NCBI GenBank assembly: GCA_030145595.1 | Contig: JAQYVG010000001.1 | Coordinates: 1 to 32,483 of the forward strand | DNA: 32,483 nt | From: Desulfobacterales bacterium | Lineage (GTDB): Bacteria > Desulfobacterota > Desulfobacteria > Desulfobacterales > UBA11574 | Direction: 5' to 3' | Shown here: positions 396 to 14,288 of the stretch, one piece after another | Layout: each line of letters starts with the position of its first letter | Position numbering within the stretch: the first letter of the stretch is position 1 | The notes under the pieces: generated by a model | Told to the model about the DNA's origin: nothing | The model's database searches: none | The model's input: only the letters and a program-made list of their open reading frames with translations | Position numbers and translations under genes: made by a program

Positions 396-661
396 AATCC
401 TTTGGCTTTTCATGGGCAAGCTATCTTCTTGATATTAAAGAATATATTTATGGAAATTTTGGTCGCGACGTTTCGTGACATAAATAAAACCGGATAGGAT
501 TTTTTTGTTTATCTGTAAAAAAAAATTAGACGGCCTAAAAGTTGCTTCTTTGGGCACATTTATGAAGGGAGGTGCAGAAAACTCGGAAGTTGTACCGTAA
601 AGTTTTTTTAGAGGTTAAAATACCGAAATCTTTTACAAAGCAAAATCAGGAGGTATACTAA

Positions 662-1099
662 ATGCCAAGTTTTGTAATTACTGAAAAATGTGACGGCTGC
701 AAAGGTGGAGACAAAACCGCCTGCATGTACATTTGCCCCAACGACCTGATGGTTCTGGAGCCCAATTCGATGTTGGCCTACAATCAGGAACCGGATCAGT
801 GCTGGGAATGTTTCTCATGCGTCAAGATCTGCCCCACCCAGGCAATTGAAGTAAGGGGTTATGCTGACTTTGTGCCGCTTGGAAGCAGCATTATGCCCAT
901 GCTGGGAACCGAGGATGTTATGTGGACCTGTAAGTTCAGAAACGGCACCATCAAGCGCTTTAAGTTCCCCATCCGGACCACCCCGGAAGGCGCCGCCAAT
1001 GCTTACGCAGATCTGAAAGGCAAGGACCTTGACAGCGAACTGCTTGCCACCGAAGAGGCCGACGGTTACGTTATGCTCACACCGATAGCAACCGTTTAA
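662..1099 (+). CDS. aprB: Dissimilatory adenylylsulfate reductase beta subunit
   Basis: MPSFVITEKCDGCKG start; two ferredoxin-type Cys motifs (CDGC..CMYICP, CWECFSCVKICP); KRFKFPIRTTPEG; SD AGGAGGT at 648-654. Confidence 0.98.
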   Translation: MPSFVITEKCDGCKGGDKTACMYICPNDLMVLEPNSMLAYNQEPDQCWECFSCVKICPTQAIEVRGYADFVPLGSSIMPMLGTEDVMWTCKFRNGTIKRFKFPIRTTPEGAANAYADLKGKDLDSELLATEEADGYVMLTPIATV

Positions 1100-7018: not shown

Positions 7019-8158
7019 ATGACGGATAAATACCTGATTGAGCCTGATATAAATTTTGTGAAAGAGATCATCGGGCTGGGGGGCGACACCCTGAAAAAGT
7101 GCTTTCAATGCGCAACCTGTTCGGTGGTCTGTCCTATTTCTCCGGACACCAAACCCTTTCCCAGGAAAGAGATGATTGCGGCGTCATGGGGATTAAAGGA
7201 CCGGCTGGTCGGCAATCTGGATATCTGGCTGTGCCATCACTGCGGGGATTGTACTACCAAATGCCCGCGCGGTGCCAAGCCGGGCGAAGTGCTGGGAGCT
7301 GTGCGCTCTTACGCCATCACGGAGTATGCTGCTCCCAAGGCCATCGGCAAAGCGGTCAATAACCCCAAAATGCTCCCTTTGCTTATGGGAATTCCCGTGG
7401 TGATCTTCCTGGTTCTGGGACTTATCACCGGTCTGCTCGATTTTTCACCGCCGCTGGGGGAACACGGGATCTCCCATTCTATGTTCTTTTCCACCTGGCT
7501 GGTCGATATGATTTTCGTTCCCCTGGCAGGCTGGGTTGTAATAGTTTTTGCCATGGGGCTCAAAAGATTTATCAATGATATCCATGAAAACGCCGTCCTG
7601 GAAGGCAAGACCGACAAGCAGGAGCTGGACTATGTTGGGTTAATCAAGGCGTTGTTTCGAGTTATCCCAACCATACTAAAACAGGACAAATTTTCGGAAT
7701 GCTCGGAAAACAAAGACCGGGACCTGGCTCACTGGATGGTCTTTTTATCATTTATCGGACTTTTTATCGTCACCAATGTATTTTTCGTGGCCCTTTACGG
7801 TCTGCAGCTTCACGGTCCCTATTCCCAGTTGAACCCGGTTAAATGGCTCGCTAATATCAGCGGTGTGGCCCTTGTTGTCGGTGGCATTCTGATGATCAAG
7901 AACCGTCTTTCCAAAACCGATCAGACCAGCGTTTACAAGGACTGGTACCTTTTAGGGCTTGTCCTGGGACTTGGACTTACCGGCATGCTGACCGAAATGA
8001 CGCGCCTGGCGGGTATGGCCGGTGTGACGTATGCTATGTATTTTGTCCATCTGGTGTTTGTGTTCAACCTGTTTGCATTTTTGCCGTTTTCAAAACTGGC
8101 CCACCTGGTCTACCGAACCGTGGCCATGGCATATAACGAATGGTCAGGCAGGAAATAA
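7019..8158 (+). CDS. qmoC: Qmo subunit C (ferredoxin domain plus membrane cytochrome b)
   Basis: CFQCATCSVVCP and CHHCGDCTTKCP motifs, about 6 hydrophobic segments, LPFSKLAHLVYR; synteny. Confidence 0.95.
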   Translation: MTDKYLIEPDINFVKEIIGLGGDTLKKCFQCATCSVVCPISPDTKPFPRKEMIAASWGLKDRLVGNLDIWLCHHCGDCTTKCPRGAKPGEVLGAVRSYAITEYAAPKAIGKAVNNPKMLPLLMGIPVVIFLVLGLITGLLDFSPPLGEHGISHSMFFSTWLVDMIFVPLAGWVVIVFAMGLKRFINDIHENAVLEGKTDKQELDYVGLIKALFRVIPTILKQDKFSECSENKDRDLAHWMVFLSFIGLFIVTNVFFVALYGLQLHGPYSQLNPVKWLANISGVALVVGGILMIKNRLSKTDQTSVYKDWYLLGLVLGLGLTGMLTEMTRLAGMAGVTYAMYFVHLVFVFNLFAFLPFSKLAHLVYRTVAMAYNEWSGRK

Positions 8159-8194
8159 CCACAAGCAAGCTACTAGTACCAAATTCGACCAACC

Positions 8195-8229
8195 AAGGGG
8201 ATACAGAAATGTATCCCCTTTCTTTATTT
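8195..8229 (+). terminator. Intrinsic terminator of qmoABC
   Basis: AAGGGGATACA-GAAA-TGTATCCCCTT stem-loop followed by TCTTTATTT. Confidence 0.85.
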
Positions 8230-8491
8230 CTGCCCTATTGAGTTAACTCCTCATCTTGATATTAAGCATAACAAAAATGGACAGGACATCATTTTGGAAA
8301 CAGGTCTTTATCTTATCTCAACTTAATGAAAACAGATAGTTGCAAGATGTCTGTATCGGCAGAAGTCAAAAAAAGTCCTATCTATTCTATCTACTTCTTC
8401 CACAAAACAACGCAATGACGTAATTTGATCTGGTATTTTATTCTACAAAATTTACCCTTGACTTTAGAGATATTTATTGTATTAATTTAAG

Positions 8492-8586
8492 TAATAATAT
8501 CAAAACGTTTACTTGGCATCTTCCAGCACCTCCTTCCCTAATGGGAAGTGGTGGCTCCTGTTGCTAGCTGCCACTTCTCTTTATTT
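8492..8586 (+). ncRNA. Candidate small RNA or attenuator with anti-SD motif (ends approximate)
   Basis: Upstream TTGACT (8458-8463) with AT-rich -10 region near 8480; CACCTCCTT anti-SD at 8527-8535; 14-bp terminator-like stem (3 G-U pairs) 8543-8556/8566-8579 followed by TTTATTT. Confidence 0.45.
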
Positions 8587-8783
8587 GATGAATAGATTTA
8601 CTAAAATCTTGAAATATTATAATACAAATTTGTCTAAAACAAGACAGCCAAAACTACCGCAGAAAGAAACAATGGCGGGCATCCTGCAGAATGTTGTGTG
8701 AATACTTCAAAAGAAAACCTAATTTGTACCGGTTTAATAGTGTGAATCGATATGAGAGTATCAAATGATAATGGTGGTGCTTG

Positions 8784-10952
8784 ATGCAAGAGCGTTCCGT
8801 TCAATTCTTCGATAAAATAAAGACTTCAAAAAACCTTCCCTCACTTCCTCAAATTCTATTAAAACTGATCGAACTCTGTAATAGTGAAGACAGCACATTC
8901 AAGGACATCGCCCAAGTCATCGATAAGGATACGTCTTTAAGTGCCAAAGTTGTCAAGATGGTCAATTCTGTCTATTATGGACTATCCAAAAGGGTAACAA
9001 GTATTGATCAGTCTCTGGTACTTTTAGGGCAAAATACAATCAAAAATATTGCCATTAGCGCGTCGGTTAATCAAGCTTTCAGCAAAGCAAAAGACAATTC
9101 TGTTTTTGGGTTGAAGGTTTTCTGGAGGCACTCTCTGATGTGTGCCATATTGTCCAAGCTGATTGCTAAAAAGATATCATACGCTTCTCCTGATGAGGCA
9201 TTTTTGACAGGGCTTCTTCACGATATAGGCAAGTTGGTTCTGTGGGTAAACTTTCCCAAAGAATATGCTGATATTCTTAATTCATCAAAAGGTCAGTGGG
9301 ATCTGGTTTTAGCCGGAGAAGCACGCCATGGTACTACTCACTGTGAAGTTGGAGCTTGGCTGATCAAACGCTGGAAGCTTCAATCATTCATGGCAGATGC
9401 AGTGCGTTATCATCATGAAGCAGTCGATAGAATTCAAGATGCTCTTGCTCTCGTTAAGATAATATATGTTGGGAATATCCTTTGTCCCGAAACAAATAAA
9501 GAAAAAGAGGTCAAATTTGGAATAGCCAAAAATATTTTTGGATTTGAAAACTCTGAGGTAGAAGAAATCATCCTTCAAGCCGAAAAAGATGTAATAGATA
9601 TCGCACAATCTTTAGATATAGATATTGAGCCGCTTGATGTTTCAGAAAAAACTGTTTCTGAAAAAGATCATGAAAAACAAGAAGATCTAATCCAGGAAGT
9701 AAAAGACATTACTTTGTTTCATGGCACACTCCAAAATCTTTTAGAGGCTCATGATGAAGATTCTATACTGCAAGCTGCACAGGAAGGGCTTCATATCTTG
9801 TTTGATGTTAAAAATGTTTTATTTTTTCTGCATGAATCAGAAAGAAATATTCTGCTCGGCAAGGGCATCGCTCCTGACAAAAATAATGATCCAATCAATG
9901 AAGTGACAATCCCCTTGCAAAATGGAAAAAGCCTTTTAGCCAAATCCCTTCTCCAAAGAAGGCCCCTTAATTCTTTCAGCGATTCAATCAAAGACAAACT
10001 TGCAATTATAGATGAGCAAATTATCCGCTTAGTTGAACAAGACGGTGTTCTTTGCCTTCCAATGATCGCACACAAACAATATGTTGGTGTAATAGTCTTG
10101 GGATTAGAAGAGGCTCGTGTCTCCCATTTAACTGATAAGATAAAGCTTCTGATGATGTTTACTAAACAGGCGGCTTCAGCTCTTCAAGCAAACTATTTGA
10201 CCCAAAACCAGGCAAAATTAATTCAGTCTGAACGTCTGAGCGCCACGTCAACCATAGCTCAAAAGATTGTTCACGAAGCGAATACCCCATTAAGCGTCAC
10301 AAAAAATTATCTTGCCATTCTGAAGAGAAAATTGTCTGAAGATCAGCCCGTTGAAGAGGAAATCAGGATTATTAATGAGGAAATCGATCGAGTGGCACTT
10401 ATTATAAGTGAATTGTCTGATTTTTCAGAACTTAAAATCCAGCCAAACGATCCTGTGGATGTAAATGCCCTTTTGTCAAACCTGATAAGAATTTTTCAGG
10501 AATCCCTTATACTCAAGCCCGACATCAATACTCATTTAAAGTTAGACCCTTCACTTCCGGCGGTTATGACAGATAAAAACAGAATGACGCAGGTCTTTAG
10601 CAACCTTATCAAAAATGCCGCTGAGGCTATGTCGGGCAGAGGAAATCTTTGTATTAGCACCAGAGATATTTCAAATTACATCGCCGATAAAATAAACCAG
10701 GTTGCAGACAATACACAAGGGTATATGGAAATCATTATCGAAGATGATGGTCCGGGCATTCCTGATAGCGTTAAAGCACAACTCTTTGAACCTTATATTA
10801 CCTCGAAAGGGGCCGGACATGCCGGTTTGGGACTCTCCATTGTTTATAATGCAGTCAAGGAATTAAAGGGGGCCATAACTTGTGAAAGCGGCAATAAAAA
10901 AGGAACGAGTTTTAAAATAGCTTTACCAATAACCCAACATCAAGAATCTTAA
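8784..10952 (+). CDS. HDOD-GAF-HisKA-HATPase sensor histidine kinase
   Basis: HDOD motifs LPSLP, FWRHSL, GLLHDIGKL, YHHE; GAF-like LCLPM..VGVIVL; H-box IVHEANTPL, N-box NLIKNA, DDGPGI, GLGLSIV; ATG 8784 preferred over TTG 8781. Confidence 0.9.
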   Translation: MQERSVQFFDKIKTSKNLPSLPQILLKLIELCNSEDSTFKDIAQVIDKDTSLSAKVVKMVNSVYYGLSKRVTSIDQSLVLLGQNTIKNIAISASVNQAFSKAKDNSVFGLKVFWRHSLMCAILSKLIAKKISYASPDEAFLTGLLHDIGKLVLWVNFPKEYADILNSSKGQWDLVLAGEARHGTTHCEVGAWLIKRWKLQSFMADAVRYHHEAVDRIQDALALVKIIYVGNILCPETNKEKEVKFGIAKNIFGFENSEVEEIILQAEKDVIDIAQSLDIDIEPLDVSEKTVSEKDHEKQEDLIQEVKDITLFHGTLQNLLEAHDEDSILQAAQEGLHILFDVKNVLFFLHESERNILLGKGIAPDKNNDPINEVTIPLQNGKSLLAKSLLQRRPLNSFSDSIKDKLAIIDEQIIRLVEQDGVLCLPMIAHKQYVGVIVLGLEEARVSHLTDKIKLLMMFTKQAASALQANYLTQNQAKLIQSERLSATSTIAQKIVHEANTPLSVTKNYLAILKRKLSEDQPVEEEIRIINEEIDRVALIISELSDFSELKIQPNDPVDVNALLSNLIRIFQESLILKPDINTHLKLDPSLPAVMTDKNRMTQVFSNLIKNAAEAMSGRGNLCISTRDISNYIADKINQVADNTQGYMEIIIEDDGPGIPDSVKAQLFEPYITSKGAGHAGLGLSIVYNAVKELKGAITCESGNKKGTSFKIALPITQHQES

Positions 10953-10967
10953 ATTAAGGAGTTCAAG

Positions 10968-12935
10968 ATGCCCAATAGTCCTAAAGTTCTCATAGTTGAT
11001 GACGACTCCAGAATGTGCGAAAGCTTAAAGGCATTATTAAGCAATCAGGACTATATATTGAAAACATGCAATAGTGGTAAAAAAGCAATAGAATATTTGA
11101 ACAAGGATGATTTTGATCTTGTGCTTCTCGACATGGTTATGCCTGATATGAATGGCTACCAAATCATGGATTATATAAACGATCAAAGTCCTGATACCCT
11201 GGTCATTGTTATTAGCGGACATGCTTCAATAAAATCAGCTATAAAATTTATAAAGAAAGGGGCCTACGACTGCATCAGGAAACCATTCGAGCCGGAAGAA
11301 TTGTTGATTACAGTAAAAAATGCCCTTGATCACAAAAGGTTAGTGAGTGAAAACGATGTTATTAATGAAAAGCTGATACGGACAGAAGAATGTTACAGGT
11401 ATCTGGTTAAAAATTCTCCTGACATTATTTATATGCTGGATAGTCAAGGCAACTTTAAATTTATTAGCAATGCAGCTGAGCGGTTACTCGGTTTTAAAAT
11501 TGAACAACTTATTGGTCAGCACTATACTACTCTTATCCATGGCGATGATTTAGAAAAAGCTAAATGGTCATTTAATGAAAGAAGAACCGGCGATCGTGCT
11601 GCCTCCCAAATGGAATTGCGCCTAAAAGTCTGTGATGAAAATGGTCAGTTTAAGGATAGTAAGGTCGGACACCTGACTATTGAACTGAAATCAAACGGCA
11701 TATACGAAGAGCCGATCAAAAAAGAGGATAAAAAATTCATTGGTACACATGGCGTTATAAGAGACATAGATGACCGGAAGCAGCTTGAATCCCAATTAAA
11801 ACAAGCTTATAAAATGGAAGCTATCGGCACACTCACTGGTGGAATCGCTCATGAATTTAACAACATCCTCGGTATCATTTTAGGTAATACGGAATTAGCA
11901 CTGGATGATGTTCCTGAGTGGAATCCTGCTCATTTCAACCTTGAAGAGATTAAAACAGCAGGCCTGCGTGCCAAAAATGTTGTCAGACAGCTTCTCAGTT
12001 TCATCCGAAAAACCGACATAAAGCGACAACCTATAAGTCTAATCCCCGTCATCAAAGACGCTCTCAAGTTTTTGCGATCCACGTTAACTGCTAATATTGA
12101 TATTCGTCAGAACATTCAAGATACAGCTGATACCATCCTTGCTGATCCAACTCAAATCAATCAGATAATGATCAATTTATGCACTAATGCTTCTCACGCC
12201 GTGGAAGAAACCGGGGGGATGCTGGAAGTCGGAATGCAAAATGTTTTTTTGGATGAAGATTCAACTTCTATGCTTGACCCTGAATTGACCCAGGGCAACT
12301 ATGTCAAAGTGACTGTAAGCGATACTGGTCATGGCATAGCCCCGGAAATCCTAGAACGGATATTTGATCCCTATTTTACAACAAAAGAAGTTGGAAAAGG
12401 TTCCGGTTTGGGGCTATCAGTGGTTCAAGGCATTGTCAAAATCCATAAAGGTGCAATTACTGTTGACAGCGAACTCGGCAAAGGAACCACTTTTAGCGTT
12501 TTTTTTCCCTTGACTGAAGAAGAAGTGGTGACAGAATCTAAAACTATTGAGAAACTTCCTACTGGTAATGAAAAAATACTCTTTGTTGATGATGAAGAAT
12601 CAATCGTGTTTATTGTGCAACAGATACTGGAGCGATTGGGATATCAGGTCGAAGTAAAAATAAATCCTGTCGAAGCTCTGGAATTATTTCGTTTGAACCC
12701 TGATCAATTTGATCTGGTGATCACCGACATGGCGATGCCGCAGATGACCGGTGACAAGCTGGTGAAAGAAATTTTAAACATCCGCTCTGAAATGCCGATA
12801 ATCTTCTGTACCGGATTTAGTGAAAAAGTTGCAGAGGAAAACGCAAAAGAACTTGGCGTCAAAGCTTTTGCCATGAAACCCCTGGTTATACGCGATCTTG
12901 CAATGGTGGTTCGAAAAGTTCTGGATGAGGTATAA
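10968..12935 (+). CDS. Hybrid sensor kinase/response regulator REC-PAS-HisKA-HATPase-REC
   Basis: N-terminal REC (LIVDDD, LLDMVMP, KPF), PAS (SPDIIY..G.F..IS), H-box GGIAHEFNNIL, DTGHGI, FDPYFTTK, GSGLGL, C-terminal REC (LFVDDE, ITDMAMP). Confidence 0.93.
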   Translation: MPNSPKVLIVDDDSRMCESLKALLSNQDYILKTCNSGKKAIEYLNKDDFDLVLLDMVMPDMNGYQIMDYINDQSPDTLVIVISGHASIKSAIKFIKKGAYDCIRKPFEPEELLITVKNALDHKRLVSENDVINEKLIRTEECYRYLVKNSPDIIYMLDSQGNFKFISNAAERLLGFKIEQLIGQHYTTLIHGDDLEKAKWSFNERRTGDRAASQMELRLKVCDENGQFKDSKVGHLTIELKSNGIYEEPIKKEDKKFIGTHGVIRDIDDRKQLESQLKQAYKMEAIGTLTGGIAHEFNNILGIILGNTELALDDVPEWNPAHFNLEEIKTAGLRAKNVVRQLLSFIRKTDIKRQPISLIPVIKDALKFLRSTLTANIDIRQNIQDTADTILADPTQINQIMINLCTNASHAVEETGGMLEVGMQNVFLDEDSTSMLDPELTQGNYVKVTVSDTGHGIAPEILERIFDPYFTTKEVGKGSGLGLSVVQGIVKIHKGAITVDSELGKGTTFSVFFPLTEEEVVTESKTIEKLPTGNEKILFVDDEESIVFIVQQILERLGYQVEVKINPVEALELFRLNPDQFDLVITDMAMPQMTGDKLVKEILNIRSEMPIIFCTGFSEKVAEENAKELGVKAFAMKPLVIRDLAMVVRKVLDEV

Positions 12936-12967
12936 AAAAAGGAGATGTCAGGGGACATCTCCTTTTT
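12934..12967. terminator. Bidirectional intrinsic terminator between hybrid kinase and sat
   Basis: AAAAAGGAGATGTC-AGGG-GACATCTCCTTTTT with A run on the left and T run on the right, between convergent genes. Confidence 0.88.
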
Positions 12968-13010
12968 ATGCTGCAGGTCAAACTGATTTTGTTATCAGGA
13001 TTATGAAAGA

Positions 13011-14288
13011 TTACTCTTCGCCGGTTGCAGCGCCGTGCATCTTGATTTCGACTTTTTCTTCAAGCTCTTCATAGTACTGGCGAAGGATTTCAACAACTTC
13101 ATCCCGTCCAAAATGATCGGGAAGCTCGCCGCCTTCTGAAAGCATTTTGCGCAGCATGGTTCCGGAGAGCAGTACCCGGTCCTCTTTGCCGTGGGGGCAA
13201 GTCCTTAAGGATGCCATACCGTCGCACTTGTAGCAGTAGAAGGTCCAGTCGATCTTTAAAGGTTTGCACAGCAGCATTTTGCCGGGATCATCAGAGGTCG
13301 GAATCTTGTCAAAGATCGTCTGGGCTTCGAACATGCCGTAAAAGTCACCCACACCGGCATGGTCCCGGCCGATAATCATGCGTGAGCAGCCGTAGTTCTG
13401 ACGGAAGGTGGCATGCAGCAGGCCTTCACGGGGCCCGGCATAGCGCATGTCAAGGGGATAACCGCCCTGTACCACGTTATTTTCCACAAAGTAGCCCTTT
13501 ACAAGGGCATCGATGCATTTAACGCGAACGTCGGCCGGAATATCACCCGGTTTCAGGTTACCGACCAGCGAGTGAATATAGACACCGTCGCAAACTTCAA
13601 CGGCAATCTTGCACAGGTATTCGTGGGATCGGTGCATGGGATTTCTGAGCTGCAGCGCGGCAATCTCGGTCCAGCCTTTATCTTCGAAGATCTTGCGGGA
13701 GTCTTCGGGCCGCATATAGGTGCCCGCAAATTCGACGGGGTATTCACCTTCACTCAACACTTTGACCGGACCGGCGATATTAACATCATTCTGCGCCATG
13801 ACCATCTGAACGCCGGGGTGATCGTCTTGGGAAACTTTCCAGAATTCCTCGACCGTTGGGGTCCCTTCCCCCATAAAAACCTTCTCGCATTCATACTTTT
13901 TGTCGGCCTCGGTCATTTCATACTTCTCGGTGACCTGCATAGTGGCCATGATTTCATCGCCTTCCGGGTCGTAAAGTGCAATCTCATCGCCTTCACTAAT
14001 ACCGTCAGCATCTTCTTTGGATGCATCCAGCGTCACCGGAATGGGCCAGAATGTCCCGTCGGCAATTTGAAAATTATCACAAACACCCTGCCAGTCCGCC
14101 TTGGTCATAAAACCTGTCAGCGGGCTGAAGCCTCCGATCCCCATCATGATTAAGTCACCCTTTGAGCGTGGTGCAATAGAGATCTTTTTAAGGCCCTCGG
14201 CCTTTTTCTTTTCCGCTTCCAATTCAGCGCCTTCAAGTAGGCAGCAAGTTAAGCCTTTGCCGCCATGAGGTGGAATTAAATTTGACAT
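13011..14288 (-). CDS. sat: Sulfate adenylyltransferase (dissimilatory ATP sulfurylase)
   Basis: LIPPHGG start, [42 protein letters not shown], Zn motif CYKC..CPH. Confidence 0.98.

Follow-up and report, generated by a model that had tools for sequence, protein, structure and literature searches.

An uncatalogued, probable non-coding RNA family with a conserved anti-Shine-Dalgarno stretch in Desulfobacterales, and its copy behind qmoC

The DNA behind qmoC in a Desulfobacterales genome carries a member of a conserved, uncatalogued family of non-coding elements, recognizable by its sequence conservation, a covarying hairpin, plus-strand polarity, a constant anti-Shine-Dalgarno (anti-SD) stretch, two types of promoter and neighbours that are signalling genes. 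This copy, a predicted RNA of about 97 nt (8492–8590, plus strand), lies in what is called here the window, i.e. the whole stretch of 32,483 nucleotides that was analysed, from a genome (G000) that is 92% complete; it scores 76.9 bits with a covariance model of the family (R2) and has no Rfam match. It likely represents one subtype (A) of a multicopy family that is a sibling to csRNA-like small RNAs (sRNAs).

On balance, the element probably encodes a trans-acting sRNA that blocks the ribosome-binding sites of several mRNAs. Specifically, a unit of promoter, core and hairpin would give rise to an RNA of about 97 nt ending at the hairpin, whose anti-SD stretch would pair with the ribosome-binding sites of several mRNAs and thus block ribosome entry, while subtype-specific bases beside it would choose the targets, subtype A adding an in-register anti-AUG. 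The element would be an sRNA gene in its own right, mobile between signalling islands and switched on by a neighbouring regulator. An earlier note on this DNA had proposed a trans-acting sRNA directed at aprB; a discrete, conserved, RNA-like unit near signalling genes is borne out, but its specificity for aprB is not.

Few RNA regulators have been described in sulfate reducers, and those found in print come from Desulfovibrio-type organisms. What is added here is a family with clear limits, whose structure covaries, whose subtypes differ in their seeds and whose promoters swap between the sigma70 and sigma54 types, in a genome without an Hfq match. Should aprB or dsrC be real targets, RNA control of sulfate respiration would be directly testable with pairs of reporters.

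Anatomy and predicted fold of the window copy

The apr-qmo operon is divided from the element by the qmoC terminator (8195–8220, plus strand), found where the earlier note had placed one. It was the sole terminator called by a consensus scan of the window, which left both the promoter and the hairpin of the element uncalled. The promoter that had been proposed holds up in part. A -35-like hexamer of the sigma70 type, TTGACT, is present at 8458–8463 (plus strand), and its TTGAC is kept in three of the other four subtype-A copies (G002, L071 and L072) but not in L064. The AT-rich -10 region (8478–8488, plus strand) is backed by a 17-nt block identical in G002 and is non-consensus, its hexamer TATTAA, at a spacer of 16 nt, having no final T; the -10 habits of G000, when tallied, gave a weak signal. 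Transcription presumably starts near 8492.

The conserved core (8512–8533, plus strand) comprises an anti-AUG seed, a 4-bp mini-hairpin (8513–8526) and the anti-SD, and 21 of its 22 columns are invariant in the five subtype-A copies, as are 10/20 columns upstream, 20/36 in the stem of the long hairpin and 1/9 in its loop. The stretch complementary to the aprB start extends over 9 nt (8511–8519, plus strand), of which 8 nt are kept in 5/5 subtype-A copies and the ninth pair is unique to the window copy. The anti-SD (8528–8535, plus strand) is followed by a long hairpin with a U-rich tail (8539–8590, plus strand), a likely terminator to judge from shuffling, covariation and the balance of G-U over A-C cells. 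The 14-bp stem reported earlier is real (8543–8556 with 8566–8579; -21.7 kcal/mol, z -4.42) and none of 200 shuffles folded as well, whereas its reading as a terminator was not echoed by the consensus scan.

In the consensus fold of subtype A the anti-SD is unpaired between two stem-loops, while the G000 copy by itself favours another fold. The lowest-energy structure predicted for it buries the anti-SD (-28.1 vs -24.9 kcal/mol, a gap of 3.2 kcal/mol), with a predicted unpaired probability of 0.21 for that stretch. Such a fold, which hides the anti-SD and would block the hairpin, is found for G000 and L071 only (2/5 of subtype A) and is missing in G002, L072 and L064. Assembled RNA contigs (X1 and X2, compared with 8000–9300 of the window, and contigs of four runs, compared with one subtype-D copy) cover the element at neither place and, being contigs, carry no weight either way.

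Distribution and conservation of the family

A BLAST search of 60 relatives returned one homologue, in G002 (77% identity over 119 nt). A pattern scan of metagenomes gave 17 matches, of which 4 are full homologues, one of them identical to the G002 copy, and the other 13 were set aside; the same sequence as in G002 also occurs in one record of a genome collection, that of Ca. Desulfatibia vada. A first covariance model, made from the five subtype-A copies, led to weaker copies across the family, and the second, R2, was made from 21 copies. At E<=0.01, R2 matches 26 of 52 sampled and often incomplete genomes of the window's family, a group (the Desulfatibia family) of uncultured bacteria of the sulfate-reducer type, with 1–4 matches each and a few weak or opposite-strand echoes; the homologues proposed as a check do exist. 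Outside this family, six other genomes were matched among 150 sampled from the order, of which only G150 and G185 look real, and a sample of 150 genomes at class level gave one weak match. The counts below refer to 42 copies, six of the 48 model matches having been dropped (L133 as a duplicate; L168, L172, L180, L181 and L185 as spurious by eye).

Viral contigs gave 0 matches. Rfam at its gathering score matched neither the window nor 14 homologous loci, and at E<=10 over the element it returned nothing except a lncRNA at 11.6 bits. A candidate paralogue in G000 (one weak match, 26.6 bits) misses the motif and was rejected, leaving one confident copy in that genome. When 3 mismatches were allowed, a pattern search across the order hit 188 of 301 genomes; it was set aside, as the motif looks like a common coding stretch on the opposite strand. 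In G056 and G095 (L141, L150, L151 and L180), a different long G/C palindromic repeat gets a weak model score and is judged unrelated. Two identical copies in G068:C217 (L155 and L133) lie 3.2 kb apart with their neighbours duplicated, which is either a local duplication or an assembly artefact.

The hairpin covaries, as had been suggested for checking. In an alignment of 21 sequences with 16 consensus pairs, 95.5% of the cells are paired (47–65% when the alignment is slid as a control), and 6 of the 16 pairs and 16 cells have changed on both sides, a cell count reached by 0/500 shuffles. This result is biased towards the hairpin, a model of which served to collect the aligned sequences; even so, 4 pairs changed on both sides are present among the five subtype-A copies, for which sequence was the sole search criterion. 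Among the hairpin cells, 61 are G-U and 6 are A-C, which assigns the structure to the plus strand. The primary sequence of the hairpin is also kept across subtypes; subtypes B and D have weak U-tails.

This polarity bears on the reading in which the minus strand is functional, with an SD, an ATG and a short peptide, and the plus-strand RNA is its antisense. A frame of 10 codons does stand behind a perfect SD at 8487–8519 (minus strand), SD and ATG are perfect in 5/5 subtype-A copies, and the four different codons found at position 5 all specify Arg. However, the frames run to only 10–20 codons (10, 10, 10, 14 and 20 in subtype A), L072 has a 1-nt indel, the arrangement occurs in 8/42 copies, and promoters as well as G-U pairs favour the plus strand. 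The frame is judged a by-product, and a coding minus strand is extremely unlikely.

Across the family, CCTCC stands directly before the hairpin in 37/42 copies, making the anti-SD the constant part. TTGGCA occurs in 14/42 copies, the full anti-AUG seed TTGGCAT in 5/42, and anti-SD plus anti-AUG in register in 8/42; the seed that the earlier note expected to be kept in homologues is confined to a minority of them. An upstream promoter motif is present in 31/42 copies, 17 of them sigma70-like and 14 sigma54-like, the latter called with the -24/-12 consensus, and 11 copies have neither.

Comparison with known small RNAs

The csRNAs of the CiaRH regulon in Streptococcus (PMC3091779, PMC4507080) are similarly multicopy, about 90–150 nt long and variable in genomic place. 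They likewise expose an unpaired anti-SD (in subtype A, with an anti-AUG) between a small stem-loop and a terminator (PMC3091779). Unlike the csRNAs, the present family belongs to another phylum, has no Rfam match and uses sigma70- or sigma54-type promoters. The csRNA nonamer [A/C]UCCUAAA[A/C] was found in 0/48 family matches scanned, and an anti-start-codon segment, present in nearly all csRNAs, has its counterpart here in the 8/42 in-register copies. LhrC of Listeria monocytogenes (PMC4132741) is a multicopy RNA with CU-rich sites that block translation, and some subtypes here have two CU-rich motifs; there is no sequence match, however, LisRK control and the targeting of lapB as described there have no demonstrated counterpart, and G000 has no Hfq match. 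As to copy number, the family here gives 1–4 matches per genome, with a single confident copy in G000.

Qrr genes of the Vibrionaceae adjoin luxO. The Qrr RNAs are multicopy too, and 14/42 copies of the present family have a sigma54-like promoter motif, several of them divergent from a gene for an enhancer-binding protein; unlike the Qrr RNAs, the window copy has a sigma70-type promoter, no Hfq was found in G000 and there is no Rfam match. The family likely works in the manner of csRNAs and LhrC, with a sigma54 subtype that recalls Qrr, and is a member of none of these, from which it is set apart because there is no Rfam match, no csRNA nonamer and no Hfq found.

Precedents in sulfate reducers come from Desulfovibrio vulgaris. 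DseA is an RNA predicted to block a ribosome-binding site and start codon; it is a SAM-I riboswitch RNA (10.1101/803072), of a kind that Rfam would detect, and Rfam is silent on the present element. Dv_sRNA2 is an sRNA encoded beside its response regulator (PMC3333781), and was compared by description only. An Rfam-based survey of sRNAs in sulfate reducers does not mention aprB in its accessible text (PMC11124144). A literature search over the main text of mostly open papers found no description of this family.

Genomic neighbourhood

Downstream of the window copy lies a gene for an HDOD-GAF-histidine kinase (8781–10952, plus strand), found downstream of the element in L071 and L072 as well, and then one for a REC-PAS hybrid kinase (10968–12935, plus strand). 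Both stand between qmoC and the convergent sat (13011–14288), within the sulfate-activation cluster (8781–14288). A palindromic TATAAT on both strands at 8615–8624, likewise present in L071 and L072, may serve the kinase as a promoter of its own. At 8672 there is what is left of the REC gene fragment found in L072. Only L071 shares the gene order of the window, other genes lying upstream of the element in L072 and L064. Twenty-five further qmoC loci, all with downstream sequence of 600 nt or longer, lack the element behind qmoC; G002 lies outside this set, its contig ending 63 nt past the qmoC match.

The gene that comes next shares the strand of the element in nearly all cases and varies in kind and distance (REC kinases, PilZ, HU, CstA, a 92-aa protein; one convergent), and therefore fits a free-standing gene. 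Other neighbours across copies are PAS-LuxR and VpsT-like LuxR regulators, PilZ proteins, kinases and a LytTR regulator. Beside seven sigma54-type copies lies a divergent gene that belongs to one and the same family, and the two of these genes that were scanned encode GAF-sigma54 activators. Such regulators may control the RNA next to them. Hfq was sought in G000 with PF17209, without a match, and the family may well act independently of it.

The main rival to a trans-acting sRNA is a cis-acting 5′ leader, whose hairpin would attenuate transcription while its anti-SD would fold onto the SD of the next gene. Against a trans role, an ORF begins no more than 10 nt from the element in 11 of the 42 copies, and for 9 of those 11 the anti-SD is predicted to pair with the SD of this ORF (0.67–0.80), which fits a cis role, as do the shared strand of the next gene and the alternative fold of G000 and L071, which would preclude the hairpin. 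However, folding programs pair any anti-SD with a nearby SD, copies that have no gene close by (including all of subtype A) retain the anti-SD, and three of the five copies without CCTCC sit before the SD of the 92-aa protein gene. Moreover, the alternative fold is missing in the other three subtype-A copies, the class of the downstream gene is not constant and no riboswitch family is matched. A leader is therefore improbable, and a trans-acting sRNA is preferred.

The protein of about 92 aa, with Cys pairs (L159:1222–1497, minus strand; L164:1600–1932), is encoded within 10 nt after many copies and has no Pfam or NCBIfam match. Its gene travels with genes for the GAF-sigma54 activator, the VpsT-like LuxR regulator and PilZ proteins.

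aprB and dsrC as candidate targets

The proposed target is the ribosome-binding site and first three codons of aprB (648–670, plus strand), whose identity, like that of qmoC, passes the NCBIfam cut-off. The complementarity described earlier is correct: 8511–8519 is the exact reverse complement of 662–670, 8528–8534 that of the SD at 648–654, and the spacings are 8 vs 7 nt. In the best duplex, helices of 7 bp and 9 bp flank an unpaired 8x7 loop, with another 3 bp beyond; the additional CAAA and AGTAAT matches fall out of register, need bulges and are missing from the G002 copy. As had been conceded, the anti-SD match is generic, fitting qmoB and qmoC in the window and 98 of the 3559 start regions of G000. 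The 9-nt match was taken to be the specific part. In 5000 shuffles, the chance of such a match over a start codon is 1.9% when the 19 genes of the window are considered, rising to 24% with the 245 genes that have AGGAGG and to 80% with all 3559. The match is thus mildly unusual locally and expected genome-wide.

Among these 3559 start regions, taken from a crude ORF caller with some wrong starts and some spurious ORFs and scored with opening costs, aprB ranks 38th with the terminator folded, 61st in the free ensemble and 110th by hybrid energy alone. With 25 homologous RNAs, for which the G000 start regions served as a stand-in for each genome's own, its rank is 20–1683 singly and 53–80 combined. 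Ranking against all start regions, suggested as a check, does not single out aprB, and no target stands out in any ranking, with either the window RNA or the 25 homologues. The hybrid kinase, held earlier to be a further target, does have the short matches at 10956 and 10965, but is predicted to be poorly targeted at its start region (ranks 667, 933 and 1056 under the same three scorings). The top-ranked start region, G000:C532 near 3339, has a 12-nt pairing around the SD and presumably belongs to ribosomal protein L10. Perfect complementarity to the unpaired region reaches at most 14 nt in G000, and none of the listed sites of this length is at an evident gene start; the targeting of 'M..KPTYEE' signalling proteins by the seed was rejected, their starts not being complementary.

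It could still be argued that subtype A evolved to repress aprB, perhaps also dsrC, and so throttles dissimilatory sulfate reduction. The exact motif GGAGG-N6-11-ATGCCAAG has three matches each in G000 and G002, of which only aprB is the start of a full-length gene, the others being the element's own minus strand and a site with a frame of 21–30 codons. The 8-nt seed is constant in subtype A, the local chance of the aprB match is about 1–2%, aprB lies in the top 1–3% of starts and is 8th of the 98 AGGAGGT starts for the window copy (13th–27th combined), and dsrC has the same two-part fit. The TTGGCA of subtype B, which doubles as an arm of a small hairpin, could still pair with codons 1–3 of aprB.

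Against this, the seed is confined to the five subtype-A copies while the aprB start is identical in 30/30 relatives' loci, and the RNA of G002 puts aprB 217th. Of the 8 bases between the two seeds, 7 are invariant yet unpaired with aprB, unlike csRNA-comC, where the interval between seeds was required (PMC4507080). Half of the anti-AUG seed falls inside the conserved mini-hairpin, and the element is absent behind qmoC in the 25 other loci. The dsrC start (L192:130–160, G000:C98) fits both seeds at -20.6 kcal/mol in G000 and -23.0 kcal/mol in G002, ranks 75th, and keeps its fit in four genomes of the genus (G000, G001, G002 and G004) but not in G063 and G074; it was noticed post hoc.

The link to aprB is thus weak, and by complementarity aprB and dsrC are possible but unproven candidates among dozens. 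Evolution of subtype A towards repression of aprB is unlikely, it is doubtful that aprB is the main target of the element, and even less should be staked on the composite proposal that subtype A is an Hfq-independent sRNA which would cover the SD and the opening codons of aprB as well as dsrC, giving a signalling island the means to throttle dissimilatory sulfate reduction at two steps. The literature searched, again the main text of mostly open papers, holds no description of an RNA regulator of this pathway or of an sRNA acting on aprAB.

Without a clear mRNA target, it may be asked whether the RNA has a protein or a second RNA as its partner (pairing with GGA-rich CsrA sites, sponges) rather than a set of mRNA starts. 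CsrA is encoded in G000, and the preserved primary sequence of the hairpin would suit such a role; however, the plus strand of the window copy has no exposed GGA array and nothing speaks directly in its favour, making this very unlikely next to the preferred pairing with several ribosome-binding sites.

Some further observations concern aprB itself. Two copies are present in G004 (C51 and C396), and G000:C655:234–503 is a second, partial aprB-like match, 69% identical. In the window, a TTGACA at 367–372 would mean a leader of about 260 nt for aprB (367–661), and the contig end upstream of the gene (1–84) carries a tandem 7-nt repeat with 11 full copies.
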